The notes: generated by a model not told the origin, from the letters alone. DNA of 64,000 nucleotides from Fidelibacterota bacterium (GCA_028101095.1 JAOHKG010000002.1:7916-71915), one strand, 5' to 3'; positions 7,101 to 35,820 are shown, numbered from the stretch's first letter. Translations and numbers: made by a program.

Positions 7101-7123
7101 TCATTAAAATATTTAGTTGAAAT

Positions 7124-7167
7124 AGGCTCTAATGCTTTTAACATTAGAGCCTTCATTAAATTTTTTT
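7124..7167 (+). terminator. Hairpin after the pilin gene (probable attenuator/terminator)
   Basis: Perfect 11-bp stem AGGCTCTAATG (7124-7134) / CATTAGAGCCT (7142-7152) with a 7-nt loop. The T7 run at 7161-7167 is not directly adjacent to the stem. Confidence 0.55.
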
Positions 7168-7184
7168 CAAATAGAGTTGAGTAC

Positions 7185-7673: not shown

Positions 7674-7696
7674 TGTAAATATATTAAATTTGGCAA

Positions 7697-10896: not shown

Positions 10897-10909
10897 TCTA
10901 GGAGTGACT

Positions 10910-11245: not shown

Positions 11246-11311
11246 AAAACCTCGTTAATTAAGGCGTAAAATAGATCTTATAGTTTTACTAATTTATTTG
11301 TAATATAAAAT

Positions 11312-11737: not shown

Positions 11738-11756
11738 AGGTCTTTATTGACAAAGG

Positions 11757-15415: not shown

Positions 15416-15426
15416 AATCAAATAAT

Positions 15427-15978: not shown

Positions 15979-15982
15979 TAAA

Positions 15983-17287
15983 ATGAAGAATCTTTTAATA
16001 ATAATATTTCTTTTTTCTTCTTTTTCTTTTTCTCAAAATAATTTAAATGTTACTTCTATTACAGAGCAGAATGAAGCTGTAAATAGTTTAGATCAGAATA
16101 TGTCTATTAATATGGAAAACTCTGATATAAAAAATGTTCTAATGTTAATCGGTGAACTTACTGGATTAAATATTGTTATCAGTCCTGCTGTAAAAGATAC
16201 GATCACTGCTTCTCTAATTGATGTAACAGTAAAGGCTGCTCTTGATGCAATATTAAAACCAAATGGTTATAGCTACTTTTTCCAAGAAAATATTATTGTT
16301 GTGAAAGGTAGTGATACACAAATGGTTGGAGAGCTAGAAACGGTTGTAGTGAAATTAAATTATATTAATTCAAGTGATTTAATTGGCACTCTTAGTGCTG
16401 TTTTAACCCCTAGGGGAAAGGTGCAACCATTCACACCTCTTGTTTCAAAACAAAGTAATAGCGGATCATCAAATATTATTGTGATCTCTGATATCCAAGA
16501 AAATATTAATTCTGTATTGAAGATTATTGAAACTTTAGATGTTCCGATTCCAAACATAAATATTGCCATCCGGTTTATTGAAACTAATCTAGATACTCTG
16601 AGAGGCTTTGGAATTGATTGGAGTCGAACACCACTAAGCCCCGGAGAATATGGAATCCAAGATTCAAGCACTACTCTTGGAATTAGTCTGGACAATGTCA
16701 CAATTGCAACACTTAATCCACTCCAACTGACAAATGCGCTAAAAATTATGCAAGCTCGAGGCCAGTCAAAGCTTTTATCAAGCCCTCAGGTGACAACTTT
16801 GGATAATCATGAAGCTGAAACGGAAACGGTAACGACTGTATATATCGAAGGAAATATTAGCAACCAAAACCAGCTAGGACAGCAAGGATCTCAAAATCAG
16901 AGTAGCTCCAGCTTAGGTAGTAATATCTTAGTAAACCAAGTCCAGGAGAAAGATATTGGCATAAAGCTAAAAGTTACTCCTAGAATAAATAATGATTCAA
17001 AAATAACAATGCTTGTTGATGCGCAAGTAGAGGCTCTTTTATCTGCTGCAGAAATTGACACTGAAAAACCTAGATCTACAAAAAGAACTGTCAAAACTCA
17101 AGTAACGGTGGTAGATGGTAATACGGCTATCATTGGTGGATTGATTGCCGAAAACACTTTAGAGTCAAAAAAGTTTGTTCCAATATTAAGTTCGATTCCT
17201 TTGTTGGGAAATCTTTTTAAATCTTCTACTATTGAGAAGGAACAACGTGAATTATTAATCTTTATTACACCAACCATAGTTGACTAA
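15983..17287 (+). CDS. pilQ: Secretin (PilQ/MshL/GspD family), short form
   Basis: Signal peptide MKNLLIIIFLFSSFSFSQ. N-domain NIKNVLMLIGELTGLNIVISP. C-terminal secretin hallmark VPILSSIPLLGNLFKS...RELLIFITPTIV. Confidence 0.88.
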   Translation: MKNLLIIIFLFSSFSFSQNNLNVTSITEQNEAVNSLDQNMSINMENSDIKNVLMLIGELTGLNIVISPAVKDTITASLIDVTVKAALDAILKPNGYSYFFQENIIVVKGSDTQMVGELETVVVKLNYINSSDLIGTLSAVLTPRGKVQPFTPLVSKQSNSGSSNIIVISDIQENINSVLKIIETLDVPIPNINIAIRFIETNLDTLRGFGIDWSRTPLSPGEYGIQDSSTTLGISLDNVTIATLNPLQLTNALKIMQARGQSKLLSSPQVTTLDNHEAETETVTTVYIEGNISNQNQLGQQGSQNQSSSSLGSNILVNQVQEKDIGIKLKVTPRINNDSKITMLVDAQVEALLSAAEIDTEKPRSTKRTVKTQVTVVDGNTAIIGGLIAENTLESKKFVPILSSIPLLGNLFKSSTIEKEQRELLIFITPTIVD

Positions 17288-20159
17288 TAGTTTGAAAAAG
17301 CAATTACCTTATATTTCAATCGGTTTAGGTGTCGCTTTATTTGTGGCTTTTTTAGCAGTACTTGATATCTATGATACAATTGAGCATAAATTCTTGGATA
17401 TGCGGTTCAATTCAAGAGGTTTAATTGAAACGAGAGATGATATTGCAACTCTTGACATCGATGTAAGAGCTCTTCAAACAGAAGGGAAATGGGATCCATG
17501 GAGTAGAGAAAAACATATTCCTATGGTTGAGGCTGCGGGCCAACATGGGATGGATATTCTAGCTTTTGATATTTATTTTATCGAACACAGCGAAAGAGAA
17601 TTGAATTATAAATCCCTTCAAAATATTTCAGATTCAGTTGTCACGATTGAATCTGTAAAGAATCTATTCCCAAATCCAGACAATGACTTAGCAAGCGCGG
17701 CAAGTAGTGCTGGAAATGTTTATTTTGCACAAAGCTTTAAGCCTCAGCCCAAAAAAAGTGAAAAAGTAAAGATTCGAACTCCAGAACAAGAAAAACGTTT
17801 GGAAGCGATGACTCGTAAAAAACTTTACAGAGAAGTTGATCCGGATGAATACAAAACTATTTTTGACTTTTATGATGGTGAATTCCCACTGGCTTCTTTT
17901 GTTGATAGTTCAGCCGGTGTTTACTTTTTTCAGGCAAAATCAGATAAAGATGGTGTAATGAGAAAATATCCTCTTATTGGTTTGTACGAGGATAAATTAT
18001 TTCCATCCATATCATTATCAATTGCTTTAGATCATTATGGAACTTCTTTTAATGATGTTGAAATAGTTCCAGGAAAGTATCTTCGTTTTACCCCTGAAAA
18101 ACCAGATGGGTTTGGAAGAAAAATGATTACCATACCAATCAATGAAGAAGGAATGATGCAAGTCAATTGGGCTGGTAATTGGGAAGATGCAGATGGGAAT
18201 TTTGATTTAATGCATTACCCTTATAATGTTCTTAAAGACTTTCAAGAAACTGAATACAGTAATTATGTTCTTGCTGAGTTTAAAAGAATAACAAATATGG
18301 ATTATGATGGAAATGTAAGAGCTGCTTTTAAACCTGCGCTTGGTTTAATTAATGCTGGTAAAAAAGATATAATGGATGCAGCAAAAAGAGCGAATCAGGT
18401 TAGTTCTATTGAAAAATGGATTCTCCAGAACCCGAATGGTACTGCAAAAGAATTTGGGAAGGTTCCGGCATTTGTATTTAATGAAATTAAAAATAATAAC
18501 GTAATAGCCACAGCATTAATTGAAAATTCTGAACAGTCACTCGATGACCTTTTTCGTGAAAATAAAATAGAATTTGAAATTAGCTTAGCTGATTATTCAT
18601 TTGAATCCGTCCGAAAGTTAAAAGAGGATTTTGAAAAAGAAATTGATAACACAGAGGATATTTCAAAGAAAAAAAGTTTTAAAAAGTCCTTAGCCGGTAT
18701 TGCTTTAATCGAACGTAATTATCAAATAATAATTAACCTCAGTAAAAATAATTTAATTACTGAACAAAGACCGTTATTCTTCTATCCAAACTCTCAACAG
18801 CTTTATGCTGGGAGTGTTGCAAAAGGGAATGCTCGTTTAATTGTACCCTTTGAATTCTATGGGAAGAAGTTATACTACGGACTGACTGCTACTGGAACTC
18901 ATGACTTAAATCCGATGCCTTTTAATCCTAGGTACCCTATGGTAGGCCTACACGCAAATGCGTTGAATACTATTCTGAATAATGATTTAATACACGAAGT
19001 TGGAAAGGCTGTTATTGTAATAGTTATTCTTGCTATCGGATTTCTACTTGCTTTTGGCATCCCAGCTCTTACACCAGCTCAAGGGGGTATTGCTACGGGT
19101 GCAATTCTCATCGGATATTCTTATCTATCTTTCTGGCTATTTTCAAATCAAAATATATGGGTTGATTTATTTGGACCCATGTTAACGCTTGTTCTAGGTT
19201 ACTTGGGAATTACCGTTTATAACTATATCCAAGAAGAAAAAAATAAGCAATTTTTGAAAGAGTCTTTTGGTACATATGTTTCACCTGAATTAATTGATCA
19301 AATGTATGATAGTGGAGAGGAACCATCACTTGGAGGAGAAGAAGGGTACCACACGGCTTTCTTTACCGATATACAAAGTTTTTCTGCTTTCTCCGAAAAG
19401 TTATCTGCATCGGACTTAGTATCTTTATTAAATGAATATCTTACGGATATGACAGACGTTCTTTTAGAAAATAAAGGAACATTAGATAAATATATTGGTG
19501 ATGCAATTGTTGCATTTTATGGAGCACCAATTCCAATTGATCAGCATGAATTATGGGCTTGCAAGACCGCCATTAAAATGCAAGATAATCTTGCATTATT
19601 GAGAGAAAAATGGACAAGTGAAGGGGATCAATGGCCTGAAATTGTTCATAATATGCAAAATAGAATTGGAATCAGCTCTGGGCAAATGGTAACGGGTAAT
19701 ATGGGTTCAGAAGCTCGAATGAATTACACCATGATGGGCGATAATGTCAACACTGCAGCAAGATTAGAATCATCGGCAAAACAATATGGGGTTTATATTC
19801 AAATTGCAGATAGTACCTATCAGGCTGTTAAAGATAAAGTTGTAGTTCGAGACCTGGATAATGTGAAAGTTATGGGTAAGAACGAGCCTGTTAAAGTATG
19901 GGAATTGATTTCTGAAAAAGGAAAAGAACCTGACATCTATAAGAAAATACTACCTGCTTATCACGAAGCTCTAGATCTTTACAAAAATCAAGAATGGGCG
20001 AAAGCTATAGAAGCTTTTAAGGCTTCTGAGAAACTTGAAGATATGTTTGGGGGAAGGAAAACTAACCCTAGCCGTATTTATATTCCTCGTTGCGAACACT
20101 ACCTTGAGAACTCTCCAGGTGATGATTGGGATGGTGTTTGGACACTTACAAGCAAATAG
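17280..20159 (+). CDS. CHASE2-domain membrane sensor fused to a class III adenylate cyclase
   Basis: 959 aa. TTG start overlaps the secretin stop by 8 nt. N-terminal TM, long periplasmic region, 3 TM. Cyclase motifs FFTDIQSFSAFSE, KYIGDAIVAFYGAP, MGDNVNTAARLES. TPR-like tail. Confidence 0.85.
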   Translation: MTNSLKKQLPYISIGLGVALFVAFLAVLDIYDTIEHKFLDMRFNSRGLIETRDDIATLDIDVRALQTEGKWDPWSREKHIPMVEAAGQHGMDILAFDIYFIEHSERELNYKSLQNISDSVVTIESVKNLFPNPDNDLASAASSAGNVYFAQSFKPQPKKSEKVKIRTPEQEKRLEAMTRKKLYREVDPDEYKTIFDFYDGEFPLASFVDSSAGVYFFQAKSDKDGVMRKYPLIGLYEDKLFPSISLSIALDHYGTSFNDVEIVPGKYLRFTPEKPDGFGRKMITIPINEEGMMQVNWAGNWEDADGNFDLMHYPYNVLKDFQETEYSNYVLAEFKRITNMDYDGNVRAAFKPALGLINAGKKDIMDAAKRANQVSSIEKWILQNPNGTAKEFGKVPAFVFNEIKNNNVIATALIENSEQSLDDLFRENKIEFEISLADYSFESVRKLKEDFEKEIDNTEDISKKKSFKKSLAGIALIERNYQIIINLSKNNLITEQRPLFFYPNSQQLYAGSVAKGNARLIVPFEFYGKKLYYGLTATGTHDLNPMPFNPRYPMVGLHANALNTILNNDLIHEVGKAVIVIVILAIGFLLAFGIPALTPAQGGIATGAILIGYSYLSFWLFSNQNIWVDLFGPMLTLVLGYLGITVYNYIQEEKNKQFLKESFGTYVSPELIDQMYDSGEEPSLGGEEGYHTAFFTDIQSFSAFSEKLSASDLVSLLNEYLTDMTDVLLENKGTLDKYIGDAIVAFYGAPIPIDQHELWACKTAIKMQDNLALLREKWTSEGDQWPEIVHNMQNRIGISSGQMVTGNMGSEARMNYTMMGDNVNTAARLESSAKQYGVYIQIADSTYQAVKDKVVVRDLDNVKVMGKNEPVKVWELISEKGKEPDIYKKILPAYHEALDLYKNQEWAKAIEAFKASEKLEDMFGGRKTNPSRIYIPRCEHYLENSPGDDWDGVWTLTSK

Positions 20160-20170: not shown

Positions 20171-23100
20171 ATGAGCAAAGGTTTTATACATAAGATTTAC
20201 ATCTTTCTATTTATTATATCTTTCAATGTATGTTTTGGGCAAACATTTGAATTTAGTCAAGCAGTAACCGATTCATTACCTCAAGTTAATGCTAATTCAT
20301 TACAAGTTGGTGACGTGAACAATGATGGCTTCAATGATTTATTTATTTCGGGTTATGATGAACGTCGGTTTGGATTATACTTTGATGTATTAATTGGTAC
20401 GGAATTAGGCGTTCTTTCTCCACTTTCAAATCTAGAAATAATTACTTACCCTGACACAATTGGCGAATTTATGGGAGGTTTAGGTAATATTGCTTTGGCG
20501 GATGTCAATAGAGATGGAAACATTGACACATATATTAACGGTTCTGCAGAATCATATTTATTGCTTAATGGATCAGATGGCTTTGAGTTTACAACTGGGC
20601 TAGAAAGCCGAAGTCTTACATACAGTCATGGGAGTTGGGGTGATGTAAATATGGATGGTACACCTGATTTATTTATGATGGGTGTTGACGAAACTCAAGA
20701 TATTATTTTAAATAAATTATATTTGAATAATGGAGATAGGCTAGAAGAAGATTTTACAACAATTTTTCCCAACTTATTCAATGGTTCAAGTGCGTGGTGT
20801 GATTATGATAACGATGGCGATCCAGATTTAATTATTTGTGGACAGACAGCCAGTTCAGCATCGAGTGTTACAAGATTTTATAAAAATGAACCAACAGGAA
20901 GATTAGTTGAAGATACGAATCAAGATTTCATTGGATTAAAAGCTGGATCTTTTAAATTTTCAGATTTAGATCAAGATGGAGATCAAGATCTAATTATGTC
21001 TGGTTGGAATGTTCTTTTAAACTCAAATGTAACAAAAATTTATAAAAATGAGCCATTAGGAACGTATACTGAAATTGAGTCAGGACTAGACTTTGGTGTT
21101 AGTTATGGATCAATAGAATCAGCTGATTTTGATTTAGATGGTGATATTGATTTTATTATCGCAGGTGCAGATTCTACAGAAAACTTAGCGACGGATGTTC
21201 TAAGACTTAATGCTACTCTTGTGCAGAATAACGGGAATTTTTCTTTTACAGTTCTTCAGAATTATCAAGATGTAAGGATTGCTAATTTCATAGATGTTAA
21301 TTCAGATTTAAAACCGGACCTTGTAACGAATGGTACAACTCAATTTGGTGATATTAATAGTTCATTTACTAAAGTTTATATAAATCAATCAAACTCTAAT
21401 AGTTCTTCTCCAATTGCACCATCAAGCCTAACTGCATTTGCAGTAAGTAATCGAGCTATTTTTACATGGGGTTCTGGTTCTGATGAATCTGATAATTCAA
21501 CTAGTTTAAGATATAATTTGAAAATTGGGAACACTGTAAGTAGATCGAGTCTGTTATCTCCTTCTATAATTTATAGAGGATCAAATGTTGGGCAACGACT
21601 TGTAAGAGAGTTCTCAAATATTCCGCATGGAACATATTATTGGTCTGTGCAGACTCTGGATGCCGCGGGAAATTTATCAGAATGGTCTGATGAAGACACT
21701 TTATTTATTTCAAGGCTTGTGACTTCAACTCAATCACTTCCAGGTGTTTATTTCTCTTCCGCAGGGTGGGCAGACTATAATAATGATAATAAGTTAGACC
21801 TAGCATTGACTGGGATTACTTTTTCAGGAAATAGTATTACAAGTTTATATCAGAACGAGGATGAACTTTTAAATCAAGATTTATCACAAAATATAGATGC
21901 TGTTTTTGGAGGACATCTTTCGTGGGTTGATTATACAAATGATGGGAATTTGGATATTTCTTTATCGGGTTTTCAAATTATAAATTTTAATGGATTTCCG
22001 GCAACCGCATTTTACAAATATCAAAATGGAACTTATGTTTTTGATGCTCAAAATAACGTTACTAATTCTATTTATGGGTACACAATGGGAATTAACGGCG
22101 GATCAAATAATCATTCTTGGGGTGACTTTGATAACGATGGAGATTTTGATTTTGTAATTGGTGGGACAGATTACTACGGACAAAGAAATCTTAAAATCTT
22201 TAAGAATGATGGTGGGAACCTTAGCCTTGATACCACTCAATTAAATTTAATTCCTCTTTTTCCATGTATGGTTAACTGGGTTGATTTAAATAATGACGGA
22301 TATTTAGATCTTGTTTCGGTTGGAGCTGACTCGAATGCGGTTATAAAAATAAACACATACATCAACGATTCATCTTATGTTTTAAAGTTCTCAGATAAAT
22401 GGTCATCAGAACAATATGGTGTAACAGCAGGGGCCTTTGATTTTGGCGATTATAATGATGATGGCTATATTGATTTCTCAATACTAGGCTTGAATAGTAA
22501 CAGCGAGCCCGTATGTAAAATAATAACGAATTCTATAGATGGTTTTTCTAAAGAAGAAGGTCATGAATTACGAGGTTTGTTTAATGGTCGGCCAACTTGG
22601 GGCGATTATGACAATGATGGTGATTTAGATTTGTTAATATCAGGCTTATCAAGTACAGCTGATGGAGGAAGAGATCCTTTTACATCTATCTACTATCAAC
22701 AAAACTCAGTCTTTTCAATTGATGAGACATTAAATATTGATTCTTTAGGATATAGTTTTACTCAGTTTGGCGATTATGATGATGATGGTGATATAGATTT
22801 ATTTGTTTCTGGTTTTAATTCCAGTTCTGATGTTGTTTCAAAGGTCTATGATAATCTAGAAGCGCTAGAAAATAAAAACAATGCTCCGAACAAGCCGTAT
22901 AGTTTGAATATTGACATCGATAAAAAAGATATTCATCTTTCTTGGAGTGCTCCACAAGACATTGGAACGGAAAAAGGCTTTTTTACAAAAGAAAGCGGTC
23001 TCAAATATCAAATTCAGATTGGAACTGAAAATACTAATAATCATAAAATTATTACGGGAAATTATGGGAATAATTCAATTGGTTCGATAAACCTAACTGA

Positions 23101-24262
23101 TAAAATAGTCAGAGGAGTTCCGGAAGGAAATTATTTTTGGAAAGTAAGAGCTTCAGACCATGGATCAAGAAAATCAGATTGGTCTAATGCTGATTACTTT
23201 TATATCGATACTACACCACCTAATGTAGATACAGTTCGAGCTAATTATATTTCAGCACGAGATGTTATTTTAGTTGTGAAATTTAAAGAACAATTTTTTC
23301 TTAATGTGAATATTGACCCTTATGTTTTCGTGACGCATCCTGAAACTCCGGATCTCGATGAGGATGGAGTCACAGATTCAATTGTAGTTACTAAAGAGAG
23401 TTATAATGGTGATGAATGGACAGGATCAGTTTCTTTACCAACTGGATACAATGGTAAAACATTAAATATAAATGTTTCATCTGCTGTTGATGAGAGAGGG
23501 AATCAAATGATTCCAGAATCAATTTATAAAACTCCTGAAACTGTAATCTCTTTAAGTGGTGGCACCTCTATTAGTGAAGATGGTAATGCCTTCTTAATGG
23601 TGCCGCAAAGTGCCATTAAAACTGATGCTGAAATAACGATAAATAATATTGAAACAAGTTTAGATCTAGGGGATTCAACGTATCAGTTGAGTAATCTTTA
23701 TAACATAAAGCCAAATAACTTAGAACTAGAAAAGCCAGTGGTTATTAGAATTGTACTAGGTGATTCACTAATAACAGGTTTAGATAGCATACCATTTATT
23801 GCTAGAGTTGAAGATTCAGGGGAGCTCTTATCTATAGGAGGCTCCAAGGTTACAATAAATAATCAATCTTTTTTACAGGTGCAAACTGATAAATTAGGTA
23901 TGTACGGTGTCTTTGCAGGGACAATCAATACCAAGATAGATAGTCTTTCGAATGATTTAATATGCCAGCCAAGAATCTTTTCTCCAGCAGGGTCAATTTT
24001 TGAGTTTAATAAAACAAATATTCTCTATACTGTGGATCCGGATGAAAACCAAAATAACATAACGGCTAGAATATTTAACCTAAGTGGTAGACTTAAAAGA
24101 GTAATTGAGCCAGAAGTCTCTAATAATATTTCTGGTAATCAAGTCTTGGCATGGGATGGAAGAGATTTTGATGGAAAAGTGGTTAAAAGTGGTCTTTATA
24201 TTGTGACGTTAGAAAAAGAAAGTACGATCTTAAAAACAACAGTAGGTGTTTTGAATAGATGA
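20171..24262 (+). CDS. Secreted FG-GAP/VCBS repeat protein (two seven-repeat sets) with an FlgD-Ig/T9SS-CTD-like C-terminus
   Basis: 1363 aa with a signal peptide. 14 DxNxDGxxDL-type repeats arranged 7+7, each set followed by an FN3-like segment. C-terminus is FNLSGRLKRVIEPE...LAWDGRDFDGKVVKSGLYIVTL. Confidence 0.85.
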   Translation: MSKGFIHKIYIFLFIISFNVCFGQTFEFSQAVTDSLPQVNANSLQVGDVNNDGFNDLFISGYDERRFGLYFDVLIGTELGVLSPLSNLEIITYPDTIGEFMGGLGNIALADVNRDGNIDTYINGSAESYLLLNGSDGFEFTTGLESRSLTYSHGSWGDVNMDGTPDLFMMGVDETQDIILNKLYLNNGDRLEEDFTTIFPNLFNGSSAWCDYDNDGDPDLIICGQTASSASSVTRFYKNEPTGRLVEDTNQDFIGLKAGSFKFSDLDQDGDQDLIMSGWNVLLNSNVTKIYKNEPLGTYTEIESGLDFGVSYGSIESADFDLDGDIDFIIAGADSTENLATDVLRLNATLVQNNGNFSFTVLQNYQDVRIANFIDVNSDLKPDLVTNGTTQFGDINSSFTKVYINQSNSNSSSPIAPSSLTAFAVSNRAIFTWGSGSDESDNSTSLRYNLKIGNTVSRSSLLSPSIIYRGSNVGQRLVREFSNIPHGTYYWSVQTLDAAGNLSEWSDEDTLFISRLVTSTQSLPGVYFSSAGWADYNNDNKLDLALTGITFSGNSITSLYQNEDELLNQDLSQNIDAVFGGHLSWVDYTNDGNLDISLSGFQIINFNGFPATAFYKYQNGTYVFDAQNNVTNSIYGYTMGINGGSNNHSWGDFDNDGDFDFVIGGTDYYGQRNLKIFKNDGGNLSLDTTQLNLIPLFPCMVNWVDLNNDGYLDLVSVGADSNAVIKINTYINDSSYVLKFSDKWSSEQYGVTAGAFDFGDYNDDGYIDFSILGLNSNSEPVCKIITNSIDGFSKEEGHELRGLFNGRPTWGDYDNDGDLDLLISGLSSTADGGRDPFTSIYYQQNSVFSIDETLNIDSLGYSFTQFGDYDDDGDIDLFVSGFNSSSDVVSKVYDNLEALENKNNAPNKPYSLNIDIDKKDIHLSWSAPQDIGTEKGFFTKESGLKYQIQIGTENTNNHKIITGNYGNNSIGSINLTDKIVRGVPEGNYFWKVRASDHGSRKSDWSNADYFYIDTTPPNVDTVRANYISARDVILVVKFKEQFFLNVNIDPYVFVTHPETPDLDEDGVTDSIVVTKESYNGDEWTGSVSLPTGYNGKTLNINVSSAVDERGNQMIPESIYKTPETVISLSGGTSISEDGNAFLMVPQSAIKTDAEITINNIETSLDLGDSTYQLSNLYNIKPNNLELEKPVVIRIVLGDSLITGLDSIPFIARVEDSGELLSIGGSKVTINNQSFLQVQTDKLGMYGVFAGTINTKIDSLSNDLICQPRIFSPAGSIFEFNKTNILYTVDPDENQNNITARIFNLSGRLKRVIEPEVSNNISGNQVLAWDGRDFDGKVVKSGLYIVTLEKESTILKTTVGVLNR

Positions 24263-26997
24263 AGTATTTTTTAATTGTTTCAACACTAATATGTGCTTTG
24301 AGCAGTCAATCATATGATCAGCTCTTTTTTGGAACAAGACCTTTTGGAATGGGTGGTGCTTTTGTTGCAATCGCGGATGATGCAAATGCGATTAGTTGGA
24401 ACCCCTCAGGACTACCTGGTCTACGAAGAAAAGAATTTACTTCTACTTACACAGATTTATATAACATGGGTATTTCTAAATCCTATATTGGTTTTGTTTA
24501 CCCTTTTTCAGATAAAATAGCTTTTGGTCTAGACTGGGGTAACATAGGGTTTGATGATAGTGAGCTACTTTATGGTGAAAATAAGATTGGCTTTGCCGTC
24601 GGATATCAACCTTTTTCAATGTTTTCTGTTGGTATCAATACAAAGTATTTATTCCGTGACATGCAACTAAATGGAACTTCTTATGGTAAAAGTTCAGGAA
24701 TTGGTTATGATCTAGGTTTTCTTTTACAGCCTCACAAAATGTTAAGACTTGGTTTCAGTCTTTATGATTTAGGTGGTACAAATGTTGACTATGAAGATAA
24801 TATATCGGAAACAGTTTTAGAACAGGCTTTAAAGGTAGGTGTCGCTATTCAACCTCTAGAAAATTTGAAATTTGCATTCGATAAAAGTGATAGAAACCAT
24901 TTTGGAGCTGAGTATGTTATTGCAAATAGACTCTCAATCAGGATGGGGTATCAACAAGAATCTTTTGGATCAGCAAATCTAAATATTCTTTCAGTAGGTA
25001 CATCTATTAAATTCAAAAGTATAGTCGTTGAATATGGCTATGAAACTCAAAAATATTTAGATCCAATACATAGAATTTCTTTTGCTCTCCAATTAAGCCC
25101 AGATGTTGTCAGCATTACAACAACTCAAATTTCTCATAATCCAATTTTTAGGTCGTTACATCGCTATTATGAGTCCGAGCCGTTTGCTAAAATTGGAATC
25201 AAAAATATTTCAGATGAAGATTTGCCAGTAGACGTATCTTTATTTGTTCCTACAATGATGGAGAATCCACATAATCAATCTGTTATCCTTCCACCAAAAT
25301 CAGATGATGAGTACGAAATTGACATTTCTTTTTCAAGTGATGTATTGTCCTCAAAAAAAGCAACATTTGATAATCTTGTTCAGCCAGAAGTTCAAGTGAC
25401 GTACAAGCAGGGTGGTGAAGAAAAGCTCGCTCTTAAAAAGTTAGAATCCTCTTACGTGTTAGGGAAAGGAAAATTAACTTGGAGTAATCCGGATATGATT
25501 GCCTGTTATGTTACCCCTGCAGATGCTGTCATTGATAAATTTGCCAGAAATAATATTCAATATTACACTCCTGTGTTAAATGATTACTTCGGACGAAGTA
25601 ACTTGGGAAGAGCTATTATTCTCTATGATGCTTTAGGGACTCACGGGCTGGTTTATAATATAGATTTAGAGACCCCTTTCTTAGATATTGCTGATGATAA
25701 GTCTGCATTTGACACTGTAAAATATCCTGGAGATATGTTAAGGGATAAAATTGGTGACTGCGATGATTTAACAGCCCTTTACGGATCATTATTAGCAAAT
25801 TTAGGAATTGAGACCATGTTCCTAGACGTTTTTAAACCTGGAGCAGGGCACATATTTCTTATGTTTGACAGTGGTGTAAAACCCGATGATGTAGAAAAAT
25901 ATTTTCTTGATGCTTCAGAAGTAGTTGTTTTAAATAATAAGGTGTGGATCCCGATTGAAGCAACACTTGTGGGAAAAAGTTTTTTCTCGGCGTGGAAGCA
26001 AGGCTCCTTAAAATATAATGAAATGAAATCAGAAAACTATGTCAATGAGATTTCAGTCAAAGAAGCCTCCGCAAAATACATAGCAGGTTCCCATATTACT
26101 CCAGATGTACCATTCCCTGAAATTGAAGGTATTAGCCCTTTACTTAAAGAAGATATTAAACAGTACGGGATGTGGCTTGAGCAGATTGTTTATAAATCAG
26201 TGGATAACAGGTTAGAATCTGCAGAGGACTATTATGATGCAGGTGTTAAGTATATGGAATTTGGTAGATACAAAGAAGCAACACAAATGCTTGAAACAAG
26301 TATTAACATGAAGCCAGTGTTCCCTGATGCGATAAATACATTGGGGGTTTGTTTCACTAAAAAAGAAGATTATATCCAAGCAATTTCTTTTTATGAAAAA
26401 GCAATTGATCAATCTGGAGAGCACGCTGGCTATCTATTGAATATTGCTATCGCTCATTTTATGATGGGTAATAAAGGAATGGCAAAGCAAAAATATGATG
26501 AAGTTGTCTTAATTGATCCCGTCTTTGCTGGGAAATTAGATAAAATATTTGGTGCCGCTAAAGCAACGCTTGCTGGAAGTGCTCCTATGCCTGGACAATT
26601 AAGTATCTCTACAGACTTGGAAGACGAGTTGCAAAAAGGTTCAAGCCAAGGTCTTGTAAGCCTAGATATAAAGCCTAAAAAAATTGAAGCTAAGGATATT
26701 CCTAAAGTTTCTCATCGAAAAAGAAGAGCACGGAGTGATAACACTGTAGGTGTTACTTTTGCGAGGTTAGGAAATTACTCTATGGCAATAGATTATTTTA
26801 GAAAAGCCGTTGAACATGACTCAGAGCAATTTGATTATAAAGAAAATTTAGCTGTAGCACTTTACAGAACATATAAATACGATGAAGCAAACAACCTTTA
26901 TAATGAAATAAAAAAGATTAAACCAGAAAAAACAGCGGAATTAAGTTTTATAGAAAGTATGGGGAAAATCACACCAAAGTATAATAAGTTTGATTAA
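24259..26997 (+). CDS. PorV/PorQ-like outer-membrane beta-barrel domain fused to a transglutaminase-like core and TPR repeats
   Basis: 912 aa. N-terminus FGTRPFGMGGAFVAIADDANAISWNPSGL. Mid-region GDCDDLTALYGSLLANLGIE...GHIFLMF...VWIPIEAT. C-terminal TPR-like repeats. Confidence 0.6.
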   Translation: MKYFLIVSTLICALSSQSYDQLFFGTRPFGMGGAFVAIADDANAISWNPSGLPGLRRKEFTSTYTDLYNMGISKSYIGFVYPFSDKIAFGLDWGNIGFDDSELLYGENKIGFAVGYQPFSMFSVGINTKYLFRDMQLNGTSYGKSSGIGYDLGFLLQPHKMLRLGFSLYDLGGTNVDYEDNISETVLEQALKVGVAIQPLENLKFAFDKSDRNHFGAEYVIANRLSIRMGYQQESFGSANLNILSVGTSIKFKSIVVEYGYETQKYLDPIHRISFALQLSPDVVSITTTQISHNPIFRSLHRYYESEPFAKIGIKNISDEDLPVDVSLFVPTMMENPHNQSVILPPKSDDEYEIDISFSSDVLSSKKATFDNLVQPEVQVTYKQGGEEKLALKKLESSYVLGKGKLTWSNPDMIACYVTPADAVIDKFARNNIQYYTPVLNDYFGRSNLGRAIILYDALGTHGLVYNIDLETPFLDIADDKSAFDTVKYPGDMLRDKIGDCDDLTALYGSLLANLGIETMFLDVFKPGAGHIFLMFDSGVKPDDVEKYFLDASEVVVLNNKVWIPIEATLVGKSFFSAWKQGSLKYNEMKSENYVNEISVKEASAKYIAGSHITPDVPFPEIEGISPLLKEDIKQYGMWLEQIVYKSVDNRLESAEDYYDAGVKYMEFGRYKEATQMLETSINMKPVFPDAINTLGVCFTKKEDYIQAISFYEKAIDQSGEHAGYLLNIAIAHFMMGNKGMAKQKYDEVVLIDPVFAGKLDKIFGAAKATLAGSAPMPGQLSISTDLEDELQKGSSQGLVSLDIKPKKIEAKDIPKVSHRKRRARSDNTVGVTFARLGNYSMAIDYFRKAVEHDSEQFDYKENLAVALYRTYKYDEANNLYNEIKKIKPEKTAELSFIESMGKITPKYNKFD

Positions 26998-27024: not shown

Positions 27025-27471
27025 ATGAATAGATTAATATATATTATAAGTATTTTATCATTTGGATTTCTTTATTCGCAAGATGAAGAACTAGACATGG
27101 ATGCTATGTGGGATAATACTGTCTGGAATGAGATCGAAGAAGTCTCAACAAAAGAATATGAAGTAGAAAAGGTAACCACTGTCGCTGGAGTTCGTGGAGC
27201 AGAAGCAGAGGATGAAGCGCTTCATCATTTGTATTACAGACAATCCATGAAAGGGCCAAGCGAGATCCAACTCAATAAAGCTTTAGGCAAACTCTTAAAT
27301 ACTTTAGCTACTCTAAAAGAAAAAAAACCTGAAAATAGTAAGATTCCAGAAGTCACTCACTACGTTATTCAAATATATAAAAAATTAAATAATAATGAGA
27401 AAGCAATTGAATTTCAGACTGAGCTTTTAGCTTCCGCACCAGAATCAAAATGGGCGAAGTATTATAAATAA
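27025..27471 (+). CDS. Small secreted hypothetical protein
   Basis: 148 aa with signal-like N-terminus IYIISILSFGFLYSQ. Last gene before the terminator. Confidence 0.5.
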   Translation: MNRLIYIISILSFGFLYSQDEELDMDAMWDNTVWNEIEEVSTKEYEVEKVTTVAGVRGAEAEDEALHHLYYRQSMKGPSEIQLNKALGKLLNTLATLKEKKPENSKIPEVTHYVIQIYKKLNNNEKAIEFQTELLASAPESKWAKYYK

Positions 27472-29384: not shown

Positions 29385-32300
29385 ATGAAATCTATTATTA
29401 AAGCAATTAGCTGCGCTTTTTTAATTGTTCAATTGTTACCTGCTGCAGAATGGATATCGCTGGGTTCGGATAAACCAGTAGAACCTAGTTGGGTTGTCGA
29501 TAAATTGTCGGAAGACCTATTAAAAGTTTCTTTTAGTTTAGATGGTTACCATTTAGAAAATTTAAAAAATGGTAAAAATAAAATTTCATTCCCAAATAGT
29601 GTTTCAGATCTTAAGGCTGGAGCACCAGATCTTCCTCTGAATGCAAAATCAATTATTATACCAAACTTAACAAATATCAGTTTTTCAATTACAGAATCGG
29701 AATATATTGAAGTTGAGATAGATAATATTGTACCATCTAAAGGTAATCTTACCAGAAATATAGACCCTAACTCAATACCTATTTCCTACGGTAAAGAATA
29801 TGAGACAGACAATTGGTATCCGCAAGACATAGTCTTTATGAGAGAACCTTATATTATGAGGTCGGTAAGAGGACAAGCCATAGTGATGAAGCCTGTTCAA
29901 TATAACCCCATCAAAAAAATAGCTAGGATTTATACAAATATTACTATTTTATTAGAACCTAATAATGAAAGACCCGTTGACCCGCTCACGGATATTCCTG
30001 AAAAAGTTGCATCACGTGAATTTGAAGAAATGTACAAGAGGCATTTCATAAACTATGATGTAATGGAAAGATATGTGACTTTAAATGAACAGGGATCAAT
30101 GTTAGTTATAAGCCACGGTGATTTTATCGAAGAGATGGAAACATTTGTTAATTGGAAAAACTTTAAAGGTATCCAAACAGAATTAGTTGATGTTGCAGAA
30201 ATTGGAGATGTAGATCAGATTGCTCAATTTATTTCAGACCATTATTATGAAAATGGTACCGCTTTTGTCCTTCTAGTTGGAGACATTAACCAAATTGAAT
30301 CAATACGAAGATCGGAGGGAGCAGGGTCGAATAGTCCATCAGATAACACCTTCTCTTTTGTTGCTGGTAATGATTATTATCCTGACTTGATGATTGGTCG
30401 TTTTTCCGGAGAAACTCCAGCACATATTCAAACAATGGTAGATAGGACGATATCTTATGAAATGAATCCAGATCCAAATGCAAACTGGTATAAAAAAGGA
30501 AGTGGTTTTGCCTCGAATCAAGGGCCTGGTGATGATAATGAAAGTGATTTAGAGCATCTTAATAATATCAGAGATCTCTTATTGGATTATACATATGTTG
30601 AAATAGATCAAGTCTATGATCCGAGTGGTACAGTAGCAGATGGAGAACTTGCAATTAATGAGGGACGATCTATTATTAACTACACAGGTCATGGATCTAA
30701 TAGCTCGTGGGGTAATGGTTGCCCTATGAACAACACAAACGTTGATGGCCTAAATAATACTGGTAAATGGCCTTTTATTTGGTCAGTTGCATGTGTTAAT
30801 GGAGAGTTTCACTTGGGTACATGTTTTGCTGAAACGTGGTTACGTGCAACAGATTCAGACGGAAACCCGACAGGAGCAATTGCCACGTTAATGTCAACTG
30901 TCAATCAAGGATGGAATCCTCCGATGGAAGGGCAAGATGAAATGAATGCTATTTTCGTTGAATCTTACTCTGAAAATATCAAAAGAACATTTGGCGGAAT
31001 TTCTTTTAATGGAATGAATCAGATGAATGATAGTTATGGCTCTGCCGGCTATGATGAAACATTCTATTGGACTCTTTTTGGAGACCCTTCAGTTGTTTTA
31101 AGATCCGACATCCCAGAAGATTTAGAAGTCTCACATGATGAAGTCCTTTTGATAGGATCCTCTGAAATGAATGTTAATGTAAGCCAAAGTGGTGCTTTAG
31201 TTGCAGTATCTAATGATGGTCTTTTATTGGGCTCCGCATATACTAACGCCTCGGGTGATGTGAATATTTTATTTTCTAATAGCGTAGAAATCCCCGGTGA
31301 GCTTAGTATTCTTGTTACAGCGTATAATAAGATACCGTATGAATCTTCTGTGAATGTAATTGCGCCTGAGGGGGCATACATACTTGTGAATAACATAACC
31401 TTAACAAATTCAGAGCAAGAAGATCAATTATTTTTTGGTGAAACCGCACTTATTTATGCAACTATTCAAAACGTAGGGCAGGATACATCATCTGATTTAA
31501 ATATTATTTTGGGTCATGAGAATGGGATGGTTAATATTGTTAATAGTGAAATTTATAATACAAGTATACCCCCGGAGTCAGAGGTGGTTATTGGACCTTA
31601 CGAAGTCGAAGTTAATTGGAACTTAGAAAATGGCACCCAAGTAGACTTGGTTTTATCTGTTCAAGATGAATCTCAAACTTGGGAATATGAAACAGAGATG
31701 TTTGTTGCTGCACCTGTTTTTCAGACTCAAATGGTAAATATTATAGATAATGCGAATGGTGTTTTTGACCCAGGTGAAACGGTTACTTTAGAGCTGTCTT
31801 TAGAAAATATTGGTGGAGCACCCCTTCTAAACCCAACTTTCAATATATCAACATCTGATCCGTTTTTATCCTTAGGAGACCCTGTTTTCGACAATACATT
31901 GATATGGAATAATATTGATGGTGATAATAACATTGTTAATTTAACTATCGAAATTTTTGCTTCTTCGGATGCTCCATTAGGTCATACTTCAATTGCTGGT
32001 CTTATAATTGGATCTGTTGATAGCAATTATGAACATGTTTATCCTCTACCAATTACCTTGGGGTTGATGGTAGAAGATTTTGAAACTGCCAATTTTATGA
32101 CTTATTCTTGGATGCACTCGGGTGACTCTGATTGGGTTATCCACACGGACTCTTATTCAGGTAGTTTCTCTGCTATGTCTGGTGATGTTGGGCATAATCA
32201 AAGTTCACAATTATCTATTGACATGAATATTATTTTTGGAGGAGAGTTAACATTTTGGTCTAAAATTTCTTCTGAGCAAGAGGGTAACTCCAATGATTAT

Positions 32301-32684
32301 TTAGAATTTTTTATTGATGATCAGCCTCAAAACTTGTTAATTAGTGGAGAATCTGATTGGGCGGAATATAGTATTGATCTACCGATAGGAGAGCACTCTT
32401 TAAGCTGGGAATATACTAAAAATGATGCAACAACCTCTGGCCAAGATTGTGCTTGGATTGATAAAATACAATTTCCTCCAGGAGCTATTCCTCCTCTAAA
32501 CATTAGCTTTGGAGATGTGAACAATGATGATGTTGTTAATGTCCTAGATGTTATCGTTACCGTTAACTATTTGATTGGTTATCTTCAATTTGATCAGCAG
32601 CAAATACAAAATGCAGACATGAACCTTGATGGAGCAGTATCTATAAATGATATTTTAATGATAGTCGAAAGCGCTCTACAGTAA
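29385..32684 (+). CDS. Peptidase C25 (gingipain-like) with a C-terminal dockerin-like repeat pair
   Basis: 1099 aa with a signal peptide. Catalytic His NYTGHGSNSSWG and Cys WSVACVNGEF. CARDB/Ig-like segments. C-terminal GDVNNDDVVNVLDVIVTVNYLIG and ADMNLDGAVSINDILMIV. Confidence 0.8.
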   Translation: MKSIIKAISCAFLIVQLLPAAEWISLGSDKPVEPSWVVDKLSEDLLKVSFSLDGYHLENLKNGKNKISFPNSVSDLKAGAPDLPLNAKSIIIPNLTNISFSITESEYIEVEIDNIVPSKGNLTRNIDPNSIPISYGKEYETDNWYPQDIVFMREPYIMRSVRGQAIVMKPVQYNPIKKIARIYTNITILLEPNNERPVDPLTDIPEKVASREFEEMYKRHFINYDVMERYVTLNEQGSMLVISHGDFIEEMETFVNWKNFKGIQTELVDVAEIGDVDQIAQFISDHYYENGTAFVLLVGDINQIESIRRSEGAGSNSPSDNTFSFVAGNDYYPDLMIGRFSGETPAHIQTMVDRTISYEMNPDPNANWYKKGSGFASNQGPGDDNESDLEHLNNIRDLLLDYTYVEIDQVYDPSGTVADGELAINEGRSIINYTGHGSNSSWGNGCPMNNTNVDGLNNTGKWPFIWSVACVNGEFHLGTCFAETWLRATDSDGNPTGAIATLMSTVNQGWNPPMEGQDEMNAIFVESYSENIKRTFGGISFNGMNQMNDSYGSAGYDETFYWTLFGDPSVVLRSDIPEDLEVSHDEVLLIGSSEMNVNVSQSGALVAVSNDGLLLGSAYTNASGDVNILFSNSVEIPGELSILVTAYNKIPYESSVNVIAPEGAYILVNNITLTNSEQEDQLFFGETALIYATIQNVGQDTSSDLNIILGHENGMVNIVNSEIYNTSIPPESEVVIGPYEVEVNWNLENGTQVDLVLSVQDESQTWEYETEMFVAAPVFQTQMVNIIDNANGVFDPGETVTLELSLENIGGAPLLNPTFNISTSDPFLSLGDPVFDNTLIWNNIDGDNNIVNLTIEIFASSDAPLGHTSIAGLIIGSVDSNYEHVYPLPITLGLMVEDFETANFMTYSWMHSGDSDWVIHTDSYSGSFSAMSGDVGHNQSSQLSIDMNIIFGGELTFWSKISSEQEGNSNDYLEFFIDDQPQNLLISGESDWAEYSIDLPIGEHSLSWEYTKNDATTSGQDCAWIDKIQFPPGAIPPLNISFGDVNNDDVVNVLDVIVTVNYLIGYLQFDQQQIQNADMNLDGAVSINDILMIVESALQ

Positions 32685-33423: not shown

Positions 33424-35820
33424 ATGGTGTTTTTCAAGTTTAATGCTTCTAAGGGCTTATTAAGTTTATTAATATGTTCCAATTTTTTATTTCCGAATCA
33501 GAAATATAAACCAATCAATAGTTCTTCTCTTAGGAGCAAAGCGATCATAGCTAACAGAATAATTAAGGCTCCAATTATTGATGGTATTTCAGAAACAGAG
33601 ATATGGGGCTCATTAAAAGAAACAACAGATTTTTATCAAATTAACCCAAATGAGCTCTCGGAACCTTCAGAGCGCACTTCGGCTAAGGTTGGTTACACAG
33701 ATAAAGCTCTATATATTTTATTGAAATCCTATGATCTTAAACCACAAAAAATAAAAAAAACTTTAGTTCGCAGAGATAGTTGGGTTGATGGGTTTCAAGA
33801 TAATTCTGATTGGGTTGGTGTTACAATTGATTCTCGGAATGATGACTATAATGGTTATTTTTTTGGAGTAAATGCATCTGGGGCAAAAATAGATGTAGCT
33901 TTATCAGGGGATGATGAATACGATACCACTTGGGATGTTGTTTGGAACGTTGCGGTCTCCATTAATGAAGATAGTTGGACCGCTGAATTTGAATTACCAT
34001 TTTCAATCTTTCAATACGGGAATTCAGATGATATGGAATGGGGTATAGAGTTTTTAAGAGGTCTCCATAGACTGCAAGAGACTATAAGTTGGCCTGGTAA
34101 GCCCAAAGTAGTAAGAGGTATAATACTTCCTTTAGGCCGTCTATTAGGACTAAATGGAATTTCCAATCAAAATCAATTAGAGCTCATGCCATATACTTTA
34201 GTTGGTATGAGTAATAAAACAAAATTTAATTTAGGTTTAGACGCACGATATAGTTTGACAACAAACTCTGTTTTAAAAGCAACGATAAACCCTGACTTTG
34301 GTCAAGTTGAAGCAGACCCCTCAGTTGTTAATTTGACTGCTTTTGAAACATTTTATGAAGAGAAGCGTCCATTTTTTTCAGAGGGTTCAGATTTTTTTAG
34401 TCAACGCATTAATTTATTTAATTCGAGGCGTATTGGAAAAACTCCAAATTTTGATGTTCCAGAAGAAGGTGATCTGAAGGATGTACCAGACTTTACAACA
34501 ATTTTAGGTGCGTCAAAGATAATGGGTACTTTTAATTCAGGTATTAATTATGGCGTTATTGGTGCTATAACATCAGAAGAAAAAGCTCTCTTAGTTGATT
34601 CAACAACTGAAAGAGAGCATTTAGTTGAGCCTGAAGCATACCATTCAATTGGTAGAATAGAATTCCCAATTTTTAATAATATATCGAGATTTGGTATAAT
34701 GGGAACGAATGTGTCCCGGAAAGATACTAGCGGTGCAACTGTCATAAGTGGAGATTGGGATCTTGGGTTTTTTGAAAATAAATTATTTTCAAATGGTCAG
34801 ATAGTCAAAACAAAATCAAATGATATTTTAGGTAATGCACTCAGGTTTAATGTGGGTTATTTAAATCCTGTCTGGTGGAGCTTTCGCTTTTGGTATGGAG
34901 ATCTAGATGATTCGTTTGAAATAAATGATTTAGGTTACTCAAGAAGGAATAATATTTCTTGGACTGGTATAATGGTAGATTTTCGGAATCAAGTTACTCG
35001 CGGAATTTTTATAAATAATAATATAAAATTTATTTATAATACTGCCAAGAATGGTCAGGGTATTAATCTAGAAAGGGAGTTAGAAGTAAAACAAAATAAT
35101 CTATTAAAAAATTATTGGAAAATCAGTTTTGGCGCAGGAATAGATCTAAAAGCATATAATGATAATGACCTCTATATAGATGAAGATGCTTGGACTTATG
35201 AAGCAGAAGAGATGAGACGTCTTGGATTTAATTTGCAAACAGATCGTAGAAAAAGTGTAGTTTTGAGTTATGGAGGTGGCATTGGATATGGGAAGAATCG
35301 AGGATTTGGTTATAGAAAAGAAATGGGACTGGTCATAAAACCTTTTGAATCTTTAAATATAGAAACAGAACTCATAGAGGATTTTAGCCCAAGTGCTATG
35401 CAATATGTTGATGTGATAAAGAGTGAGATTGACACCGCAAGAGTCTATGCGGAATCGAATCTTTTAACTCGAGATGTTGCATTGCGTCTAAATTGGACAT
35501 TTAGCCCAGAGATGACATTAGAGTGCTATGTTCAGCCATTTTATGCTGAGATGAATTATGAGCAGTTTTCACGTTTAACAAGTCCTCAGAGTTCGGACTT
35601 AGAAGACTATCCGTATCTAGAAGACAATGATAATCCAAATTTTAAATATTCAAACACAATTGGAACTTTTGTTTTCAGATGGGAATATAGATCTGGAAGT
35701 ACTATTTATGTAGTCTATAATCTCAATCAAGAAAATTCTTACTCTTTTACGGATAGAAAATGGTCTTTATCAAATAAGAATGCTATTTACTTTAAATTAA
35801 ACTACTGGTTTAAATACTAA
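33424..35820 (+). CDS. DUF5916 / CBM9-like domain outer-membrane-associated protein
   Basis: 798 aa. N-terminal IIDGISETEIW-type CBM9-like start, beta-rich sequence, aromatic C-terminus LNYWFKY. Confidence 0.45.
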   Translation: MVFFKFNASKGLLSLLICSNFLFPNQKYKPINSSSLRSKAIIANRIIKAPIIDGISETEIWGSLKETTDFYQINPNELSEPSERTSAKVGYTDKALYILLKSYDLKPQKIKKTLVRRDSWVDGFQDNSDWVGVTIDSRNDDYNGYFFGVNASGAKIDVALSGDDEYDTTWDVVWNVAVSINEDSWTAEFELPFSIFQYGNSDDMEWGIEFLRGLHRLQETISWPGKPKVVRGIILPLGRLLGLNGISNQNQLELMPYTLVGMSNKTKFNLGLDARYSLTTNSVLKATINPDFGQVEADPSVVNLTAFETFYEEKRPFFSEGSDFFSQRINLFNSRRIGKTPNFDVPEEGDLKDVPDFTTILGASKIMGTFNSGINYGVIGAITSEEKALLVDSTTEREHLVEPEAYHSIGRIEFPIFNNISRFGIMGTNVSRKDTSGATVISGDWDLGFFENKLFSNGQIVKTKSNDILGNALRFNVGYLNPVWWSFRFWYGDLDDSFEINDLGYSRRNNISWTGIMVDFRNQVTRGIFINNNIKFIYNTAKNGQGINLERELEVKQNNLLKNYWKISFGAGIDLKAYNDNDLYIDEDAWTYEAEEMRRLGFNLQTDRRKSVVLSYGGGIGYGKNRGFGYRKEMGLVIKPFESLNIETELIEDFSPSAMQYVDVIKSEIDTARVYAESNLLTRDVALRLNWTFSPEMTLECYVQPFYAEMNYEQFSRLTSPQSSDLEDYPYLEDNDNPNFKYSNTIGTFVFRWEYRSGSTIYVVYNLNQENSYSFTDRKWSLSNKNAIYFKLNYWFKY

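Follow-up and report, generated by a model that had tools for sequence, protein, structure and literature searches.

What is a PorV/PorQ-type outer-membrane barrel doing in one polypeptide with a transglutaminase-type enzyme and an array of tetratricopeptide repeats (TPRs)? Barrels of this type have so far been known as shuttles or anchors in the Bacteroidota type IX secretion system (T9SS). The question is raised by a gene that we call the target, an open reading frame (ORF) of 912 codons with an ATG start (24259..26997, + strand) in a 64,000-nucleotide stretch of DNA from a Fidelibacterota bacterium (GCA_028101095.1 JAOHKG010000002.1:7916-71915), which is referred to in full as the window. 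An earlier note on this DNA, written from the sequence by itself, had described the target as an unusual fusion of the three parts and had proposed that it forms, with the gene before it, a dedicated module for processing or anchoring secreted cargo. Here, we examine the fold and conservation of the fused enzyme, the family of its barrel and the genes that accompany it in other genomes. The reading that we prefer, with a probability of about 0.4, is that the target serves, in the outer membrane, as one subunit of a conserved envelope module of four to five genes which couples a surface propeller, a periplasmic enzyme and a CHASE2 cyclase.

Layout of the target and fold of its enzyme module

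The ORF listing of the window and the junction sequence bear out the gene limits given in the earlier note, including the ATGA that the start codon of the target shares with the TGA stop of an upstream gene encoding 1363 residues (20171..24262). From its N-terminus, the precursor consists of a predicted Sec signal peptide recognized by eye (MKYFLIVSTLICALSSQSY, 24259..24315), a PorV/PorQ-family outer-membrane beta-barrel (residues 24–283, 24328..25107), an immunoglobulin (Ig)-like beta-sandwich (residues 285–407, 25111..25479), a predicted transglutaminase-fold catalytic core (residues ~408–610, 25480..26088) and two TPR blocks, all on the + strand. The barrel starts with the FadL/PorV-type N-terminal motif FGTRPFGMGGAFVAIADDANAISWNPSGL at residues 24–52. 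The Ig-like sandwich is the first half of a conserved module that we define as residues 285–645. The first TPR block (residues ~650–755, 26206..26523) matches Pfam TPR_12, TPR_8 and ANAPC3 as well as NCBIfam TPR-type models over residues 640–756, and the second (residues ~820–895, 26716..26943), found beyond a low-complexity linker, matches TPR_2, TPR_1, TPR_19 and TPR_16 over residues 830–890. The TPR-like nature proposed for the last part of the protein is secured by matches above the Pfam cut-offs to TPR_2 (68.2 bits, E-value 2.4e-19), TPR_1 (58.7 bits, E-value 3.6e-16) and TPR_12 (51.2 bits).

Searched alone, residues 285–645 gave nothing significant in Pfam, NCBIfam or the sequences of the PDB, the last of which were matched neither by the module as a single sequence nor by a 23-sequence profile. 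The sole Pfam match in this region is to the transglutaminase-like DUF553 (PF04473), at 16.7 bits against a cut-off of 20.5. Because the target reaches no Pfam cut-off there, we treat the module as a separate family without a model of its own. When 23 diverse module sequences were scanned singly, 21 matched Transglut_core (PF01841) and 20 matched DUF553, in both cases weakly; one member (P0203) rose above the Transglut_core cut-off, with 24.9 against 23 bits.

The residues expected of a thiol enzyme are kept throughout the family. In an alignment of 145 representatives that are 28–42% identical to the query, Cys501, His531 and Glu567 are invariant, as are Tyr466, Asp485 and Asp503, and the motif G-D-C-D-D, Trp563, Pro565 and Thr569 are nearly so. 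The motifs quoted in the earlier note are found exactly where it had placed them (GDCDD at residues 499–503, GHIFLMF at 530–536 and VWIPIEAT at 562–569), as are the codons of the predicted nucleophile Cys501 (25759..25761) and the predicted catalytic His531 (25849..25851); that of the predicted third triad residue, Glu567, is at 25957..25959. This third position is usually Asp in such enzymes, and since it is an invariant Glu in all 145 sequences we describe the triad as a variant, Cys-His-Glu. The invariance of the triad argues for catalysis, and a purely structural, non-catalytic role of the module is unlikely for the same reason.

An AlphaFold2 model of the whole module (m25ffeb337d0f, from the 23-sequence alignment) has a predicted local distance difference test score (pLDDT) of 89.6 and a predicted template modelling score (pTM) of 0.88, and shows an N-terminal Ig-like beta-sandwich, with strands in module residues 2–123, followed by an alpha/beta core. 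Foldseek searches with this model returned mostly Ig-like sandwiches (complement C3, PapD and factor XIII among them), along with transglutaminase 2 (TG2). Because the sandwich swamped the whole-module search, the core (residues 402–624) was refolded and searched separately. The core model (mb417d1f4e7c1) has a pLDDT of 92.1 and a pTM of 0.91. In core numbering, Cys501 opens helix 100–113, His531 opens strand 130–136, which is the next-but-one strand, and Glu567 comes immediately after the neighbouring strand 160–165. As modeled, this arrangement of Cys, His and Glu is the hallmark of papain- and transglutaminase-fold enzymes. Nearly all Foldseek neighbours of the core have the transglutaminase fold, among them the putative cysteine proteases 3isr and 3kd4, PNGase, Rad4/XPC, TglA, CPR-C4, LapG, PeiP, PeiW, TG2 and vasohibins.

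With the transglutaminase superfamily (PF01841 and PF04473; 3isr, 3kd4, PNGase 2f4o/1x3w and TG2) the predicted enzyme has in common the fold, the Cys at the start of a helix and the His strand, and with TG2 and factor XIII also the Ig-like sandwich ahead of the core. It differs in having Glu in place of Asp, the G-D-C-D-D motif and the invariant Tyr466 and Asp485. The module is, we conclude, a thiol enzyme of the transglutaminase fold whose triad is a Cys-His-Glu variant; it stands behind an Ig-like domain and forms its own family. The transglutaminase-type core with Glu for Asp that had been read from the sequence is thus upheld by the invariant triad, the fold model and the Transglut_core matches of 21 out of 23 members.

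The barrel was assessed with family and equivalog models. The NCBIfam model of the PorV/PorQ family (NF033709, curated cut-off 90 bits) scores 95.9 bits on the whole target and 101.4 bits on the barrel alone, and it is matched by all 13 orthologous barrels from four phyla (best E-value 9.9e-33). A profile of these 13 barrels finds the solved PorV structure 6h3i_F with an E-value of 2.5e-12 over PorV residues 35–237 and 326–395, leaving PorV residues ~238–325 without a counterpart in the target; the resemblance of the profile to FadL is confined to the N-terminal motif. The target barrel stays far under the equivalog cut-offs, with 36.6–42.4 bits for PorV (NF033710, cut-off 250), 31.9 bits for PorQ (NF033711, cut-off 220) and 41.4–46.4 bits for PorV2 (NF052325, cut-off 325). 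We therefore place it in a separate, shortened branch of the PorV/PorQ superfamily, so that the proposal of a PorV/PorQ-like barrel passes the profile check and PorV itself is excluded. The N-terminal 260 residues are homologous to PorV and PorQ, carry the same N-terminal motif and match both ends of PorV, but the barrel is shorter, and some 630 extra residues (Ig, enzyme and TPR) are fused to it, unlike in any described PorV or PorQ. The target also lies in phyla outside Bacteroidota, and no T9SS core gene (SprA/Sov, PorK/L/M/N or GldK/L/M/N) was found among the 36 proteins scanned in the 64-kb window. In barrels of the FadL/PorV type, the strands are even in number and both termini lie in the periplasm. 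Since this barrel is N-terminal and would have an even strand number, the Ig-enzyme-TPR part is expected to be periplasmic.

Among 290 homologues of the target, the best 120 are without exception full-length proteins from Candidatus Marinimicrobia (SAR406), 73–99% identical and labeled in databases merely as ‘tetratricopeptide repeat protein’. An exhaustive HMMER search with residues 285–645 against 1.84 billion representative proteins (clusters at 50% identity) gave 2029 representatives with module relatives at an E-value of 1e-3 or below, 1634 at 1e-10 and 405 at 1e-30. Among the best 150, an N-terminal barrel of the target type is found in 41, where the module begins near residue 300, and TPR-like C-termini are found in 87. 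The fusion is therefore not the unusual one that it had been taken for, being present in full length in those 120 close homologues and in its barrel form in these 41 representatives. Other members have different N-terminal parts. In short forms this is a region of ~200 residues resembling outer-membrane proteins, with weak OMP_b-brl matches, and in large ones it consists of Reg_prop + Y_Y_Y propellers, NHL propellers with TPRs, or CBM9. Every non-barrel form examined starts with a signal peptide, and for this reason we consider the module family to be extracytoplasmic. These results define a large enzyme family, with about 2000 clusters at 50% identity, that has no Pfam model and goes in databases by the label of a TPR protein. 

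Only one named family was found to share the module. All 23 module sequences match positions 15–306 of the 1903 in NCBIfam NF058533, ‘anti-phage protein ProA’ (best E-value 1.9e-14), and the matching stretch covers module residues 28–321 (window ~25192–26073). On this basis ProA appears to carry a homologous Ig + transglutaminase-like module at its N-terminus, which suggests, as far as sequence similarity goes, that the module is also used in a phage-defence protein. Against its cut-off of 1500 bits the ProA model scores 18.7, as the N-terminal sixth alone is matched and the remainder has no counterpart in the target. Nothing on ProA was found in the literature or plasmid records searched, and the plasmid records gave no tblastn match to the module.

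A conserved cassette of FG-GAP, small TPR and CHASE2 genes

If the enzyme acts in the envelope, its neighbours may tell on what. A scan of GTDB species-representative genomes with a 4-sequence module alignment found 181 loci that encode a module relative. We took the best 80 of these, from Marinimicrobia, KSB1, Latescibacterota and Gemmatimonadota, and compared the window genes with their six-frame ORFs, counting a locus as testable where it has enough flank. An FG-GAP protein with a tail of the C-terminal domain (CTD) type is encoded upstream of the target homologue in all 63 testable loci from the four phyla; in 66 of 68, the gene directly downstream is one for a small TPR protein. An orthologue of the CHASE2 cyclase was found on the same strand in 57 of the 80 loci, most of the remainder being truncated contigs. 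Marinimicrobia have the cyclase gene upstream of the FG-GAP gene; in the other phyla, it is found downstream of the small TPR gene. Gene order thus differs between lineages, and the linkage has survived this rearrangement at a protein identity of 30–45%. The labels of three of the source genomes, ‘Thaumarchaeota archaeon’ and ‘Balneolaceae’ (L037 and L041, 62–74% identity to the window) and ‘Enterobacterales’ (L072, ~34%), look like binning or labeling errors of metagenome-assembled genomes.

In the window, the small TPR gene (27025..27471, + strand) encodes a secreted protein of 148 residues with weak matches to TPR_8 and to the C-terminal part of PorW/SprE; its KSB1 orthologue matches TPR_6, TPR_19 and YfiO. 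The cyclase gene (17280..20159, + strand) encodes 959 residues with a CHASE2 sensor domain (E-value 1.4e-27) and a class III nucleotide cyclase domain (Guanylate_cyc, E-value 3.1e-23). The catalytic domain contains LDKYIGDAI and NYTMMGDNVNTAARLE. A Lys four residues before the metal-binding Asp and a Thr three before the conserved Gly form what we take to be the adenylate-cyclase (class IIIb) pattern, and since this pattern is present the messenger is probably cAMP. Both the CHASE2 domain and the small TPR protein are extracytoplasmic.

The partnership with CHASE2 does not depend on the barrel. One barrel-less protein (P0137, locus L081), made up of an NHL propeller, TPRs, the module and further TPRs, has a divergent CHASE2 cyclase gene beside it and the gene of a small TPR protein after it. 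The co-conserved partners and this barrel-less form suggest a periplasmic enzyme connected with signalling more than a peptidase specific to the T9SS. The most general companion of the module seems to be a beta-propeller, either fused to it or encoded next to it.

The linkage bears on one further explanation of the target, namely a neighbour-independent envelope enzyme, an amidase or endopeptidase held at the outer membrane that would act in the periplasm on peptidoglycan or on tethers between outer membrane and wall, with the TPRs as scaffold. An N-terminal barrel followed by a periplasmic domain, the OmpA-type layout, serves cell-wall contact in other proteins. The target shares this layout, and the pseudomurein endoisopeptidases PeiP and PeiW are among the fold neighbours of its core. 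We nevertheless hold such a role to be very improbable, because it would account neither for the linkage to FG-GAP, small TPR and CHASE2 genes, which is near-universal in four phyla, nor for the fusions to propellers, and because the Pfam and NCBIfam scans of the target found no peptidoglycan-binding domain.

The giant partner gene directly upstream of the target (20171..24262, + strand) encodes 1363 residues of FG-GAP and Ig domains, with FG-GAP_3 matched in 12 stretches (E-value 1.4e-36). Its last part (residues ~1271–1363, nt 23981–24259) is a CTD-like Ig domain with sub-threshold matches to FlgD_ig and TIGR04183. Orthologues from KSB1 (L051) and Gemmatimonadota (L063) pass the FlgD_ig cut-off of 27 bits with 35.7 and 37.8 bits, and their tails fall short of PF18962 (17.4 bits). 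The claim that the upstream gene encodes a CTD-bearing cargo is thus plausible through its orthologues, while the window protein itself remains below the cut-offs. A local CTD model, a hidden Markov model (HMM) built from the FG-GAP tails, gives 115 bits on the window protein and 80–135 bits on its orthologues, against 30–47 bits on other large proteins in the same loci. Since those other proteins end in the same type of domain, we regard the tail as a general sorting-type domain; its stronger conservation in the FG-GAP orthologues is consistent, at the level of sequence, with a specific docking partner. In examples from KSB1 and Gemmatimonadota, a second FG-GAP propeller of ~500 residues without a CTD is encoded between the giant FG-GAP gene and the target. 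The gene junctions overlap or abut in these examples as they do in the window.

This arrangement resembles the attachment complex of Porphyromonas gingivalis, PorU-PorV-PorQ-PorZ, which contains the same types of element, a barrel, a cysteine enzyme and a CTD-ended beta-propeller (PMC8545088). The CTDs of PorU and PorZ are retained and hold these proteins on PorV and PorQ at the cell surface (PMC8545088), and the target likewise has as its partner a protein with a CTD-type Ig domain at its end, as PorV has PorU and PorQ has PorZ. The cassette could then be a self-contained substitute for T9SS attachment, whose enzyme would act at the surface in the manner of PorU, removing the CTD of the FG-GAP protein, anchoring that protein to a glycolipid or another protein by transamidation, or both. 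The membership of the barrel in the PorV/PorQ family would fit such a substitute, as would the CTD-type domain of the partner, above the FlgD_ig cut-off in the KSB1 and Gemmatimonadota orthologues, and the fusion of the module in some relatives to Reg_prop + Y_Y_Y, the fold of PorZ/BT4663 type. Thiol enzymes of the transglutaminase fold work through an acyl-enzyme intermediate. That route would also suit transpeptidation.

We consider this attachment role unlikely. PorU has a C25 fold and works at the surface, where its own CTD holds it, whereas the enzyme of the target has a predicted transglutaminase fold, is fused to the barrel and, as it stands behind an N-terminal barrel with an even strand number, should lie in the periplasm, like the TPR arrays, the co-conserved small TPR protein and the CHASE2 domain. 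No match to the C25 (gingipain-like) catalytic domain was found in the target. The attachment complex has no counterpart of the CHASE2 cyclase and the small TPR protein, whose conservation would stay unexplained, and the propellers of the cassette are of the FG-GAP type. The module also commonly occurs with neither a barrel nor a CTD-bearing neighbour, the link is to a single CTD protein despite other CTD-type proteins in the loci, and the window proteins scanned hold none of the T9SS core genes. Of the dedicated cargo module that the earlier note had envisaged, the genetic pairing with the FG-GAP protein stands, with 63 of 63 loci, and the role as a CTD peptidase is disfavoured by the expected periplasmic site of the enzyme, by the CHASE2 and small TPR partners and by the barrel-less forms.

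A different precedent is offered by LapA/LapD/LapG. LapG is a periplasmic protease of the transglutaminase fold that has ties to a giant adhesin and to a second-messenger protein (PMC4359373), and the cassette likewise links an extracytoplasmic transglutaminase-fold enzyme genetically to a giant surface repeat protein and an inner-membrane messenger protein. By this likeness, the target would be a release switch, a periplasmic protease tethered to the outer membrane that cuts the FG-GAP adhesin or a segment retaining it under conditions signalled through CHASE2. The upstream gene always encodes a giant repeat protein, and the LapG structures 4fgp, 4fgo and 4fgq are among the fold neighbours of the core. 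LapG binds calcium near its active site (PMC4359373), and the acidic residues beside the nucleophile in the near-invariant G-D-C-D-D motif could form a metal site, a calcium site being conjecture.

Several features make a switch of this kind quite unlikely. The target and the 23 module members have no match to the BTLCP/LapG family (PF06035) at E-values up to 1, and the LapG structures appear in the Foldseek results with E-values of 0.16 or above. LapG is soluble and the enzyme of the target would be tethered to an outer-membrane barrel. The Lap system uses a receptor of cyclic di-GMP, whereas the CHASE2 cyclase is a producer that makes a messenger rather than receiving one, and the cassette holds no inside-out receptor like LapD. 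Finally, LapA carries a type I secretion signal and an N-terminal retention module, whereas the FG-GAP partner has no recognizable retention module of the LapA type and ends in a CTD-type domain instead.

In eight Marinimicrobia loci (L004, L008, L009, L011, L013, L025, L033 and L034), very large proteins of 1300–1900 residues are encoded on the minus strand (at ~4–17 kb of these loci), downstream of the small TPR gene and convergent with it, and end in the same CTD-type domain (30–37 bits with the local HMM). The slot in the window holds nucleotidyltransferase, glycosyltransferase and C25 genes instead.

Proposed coupling across the envelope

The reading preferred here, an envelope module with the target as its outer-membrane subunit, takes as members the giant FG-GAP protein with its CTD-type tail, in some phyla the ~500-residue FG-GAP propeller, the barrel-enzyme-TPR protein, the small TPR protein and the CHASE2 cyclase. 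By analogy with PorU-PorV and PorQ-PorZ, the C-terminal Ig domain of the co-encoded FG-GAP protein would dock uncleaved on the PorV/PorQ-type barrel and so be kept at the cell surface. We infer that the Ig-like sandwich, the Cys501-His531-Glu567 enzyme and the TPR array hang into the periplasm behind the last barrel strand, as in OmpA, a placement that fits because the periplasm is also where TPR arrays, the CHASE2 domain and the small TPR protein are expected. The enzyme might cleave or transamidate a periplasmic partner, with the FG-GAP proteins, the small TPR protein and the CHASE2 domain as candidate substrates. The TPR array and the small TPR protein could scaffold contact with the periplasmic CHASE2 domain, and through this putative link, physical or functional, the state of the surface propeller would be coupled to the synthesis of a cyclic nucleotide, or the reverse.

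Several points weigh against this module, and they touch each of its parts. For the enzyme, the Foldseek E-values of the core are modest, the best being 5.7e-3, with probabilities up to 0.99. For the barrel, a crude amphipathic-moment scan gave 12 segments, some merged and some missed, and a manual count gave 14 strand candidates; that the enzyme should be periplasmic follows by analogy from the even-strand rule for such barrels. The tail of the FG-GAP protein in the window scores under the curated cut-offs, with 22.1 bits for FlgD_ig (27) and 16.6 bits for TIGR04183 (23). No CHASE2 gene was found near two other architectures of the module, P0135 (L082) and P0132 (L083), one of which has an NHL-type propeller gene next to it, so CHASE2 is not a universal partner of the module. 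The link among the cassette proteins is one of synteny, which suggests rather than establishes joint function, and as the signal of the cyclase arises in the cytoplasm, the direction in which information would flow is a guess.

A bolder form of the coupling can be imagined, in which engagement of the integrin-like FG-GAP propeller protein, docked by its C-terminal domain on the barrel at the cell surface, would lead to proteolysis or transamidation by the periplasmic enzyme and TPRs of the barrel protein, an event that CHASE2 would read and that would set the level of cAMP, making the cassette a trans-envelope device. We regard this full chain as decidedly doubtful. If true, it would provide the first defined input of a CHASE2 domain and would show PorV-like barrels working outside classical type IX secretion. 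In Marinimicrobia, where the cassette adjoins a type IV pilus cluster, the output might be pilus-related.

To our knowledge, what CHASE2 domains sense has been a question since the domain was first described. The linkage to the CHASE2 cyclase gives a testable lead on this point, and that to the giant FG-GAP protein suggests a way of coupling contact with surfaces or particles to second-messenger signalling. PorV/PorQ-type barrels can be permanently fused to an enzyme in Marinimicrobia, KSB1, Latescibacterota and Gemmatimonadota, phyla that abound in oceans and sediments and have hardly any cultured members. In the literature, we found no description of a fusion of PorV with a transglutaminase-like enzyme, of the module family, of a cassette of CHASE2 and FG-GAP genes or of a T9SS in Marinimicrobia. 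The Cys-His-Glu module family, the permanent fusion with a PorV-like barrel and the partnership with FG-GAP, small TPR and CHASE2 genes thus appear to be undescribed, with the pieces coming from known superfamilies. Together, they suggest that the cassette is an uncharacterised system for envelope sensing or for adhesin control.

Surroundings of the cassette in the window

Almost all genes of the window are on the + strand, and the G+C content is even over the target region, at ~0.30–0.37. Directly upstream of the cassette (334–17287, + strand) is a cluster, apparently complete, of the type IV pilus or MSHA-like kind. Its products are a response regulator, a prepilin peptidase, an MshE-type ATPase, a sigma-54 activator, a PilC/GspF platform protein, three N_methyl pilins, small unknown proteins, an unknown protein of 550 residues, an AAA_22 protein of 1019 residues, PilO, a T2SSB-like protein and a secretin. 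In three loci (L030–L032) a secretin gene lies between the cyclase and FG-GAP genes, and in another (L044) pilin genes follow the small TPR gene. We considered the pilus cluster as part of the conserved unit and rejected it, as the adjacency is found only in Marinimicrobia.

Downstream of the cassette are nucleotidyltransferase-like and glycosyltransferase-like genes and a gene for a C25 peptidase with a dockerin. This last protein (29385–32684, 1099 residues) belongs to the gingipain family and has a propeptide, an Ig-like domain and a C-terminal type I dockerin in place of a T9SS tail; its matches to PorU and PorU2 are weak (55 and 40 bits) and far under the cut-offs. At the Gemmatimonadota locus L063 (24–1343), a small protein joins a dockerin, a cohesin and a FlgD_ig-type tail.

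Genes at 49.5–59 kb had been guessed by size to be gldK/L/M/N. This proved wrong, as they encode photolyases, a CarH-like regulator, a methyltransferase, CysQ, ThyX, the E1 component of pyruvate dehydrogenase (PDH E1) and a FabD-like protein. Part of this region (49517–53359) looks light-related, with a cryptochrome/photolyase-like protein of 494 residues, a class 2 photolyase of 443 residues (TIGR00591, 595 bits) and a MerR/CarH-like protein of 298 residues that has a B12-binding-type region. Closer to the cassette, a DUF5916 protein of 798 residues (33424–35820, E-value 7e-58) is encoded behind a DsbD_2-type membrane protein.

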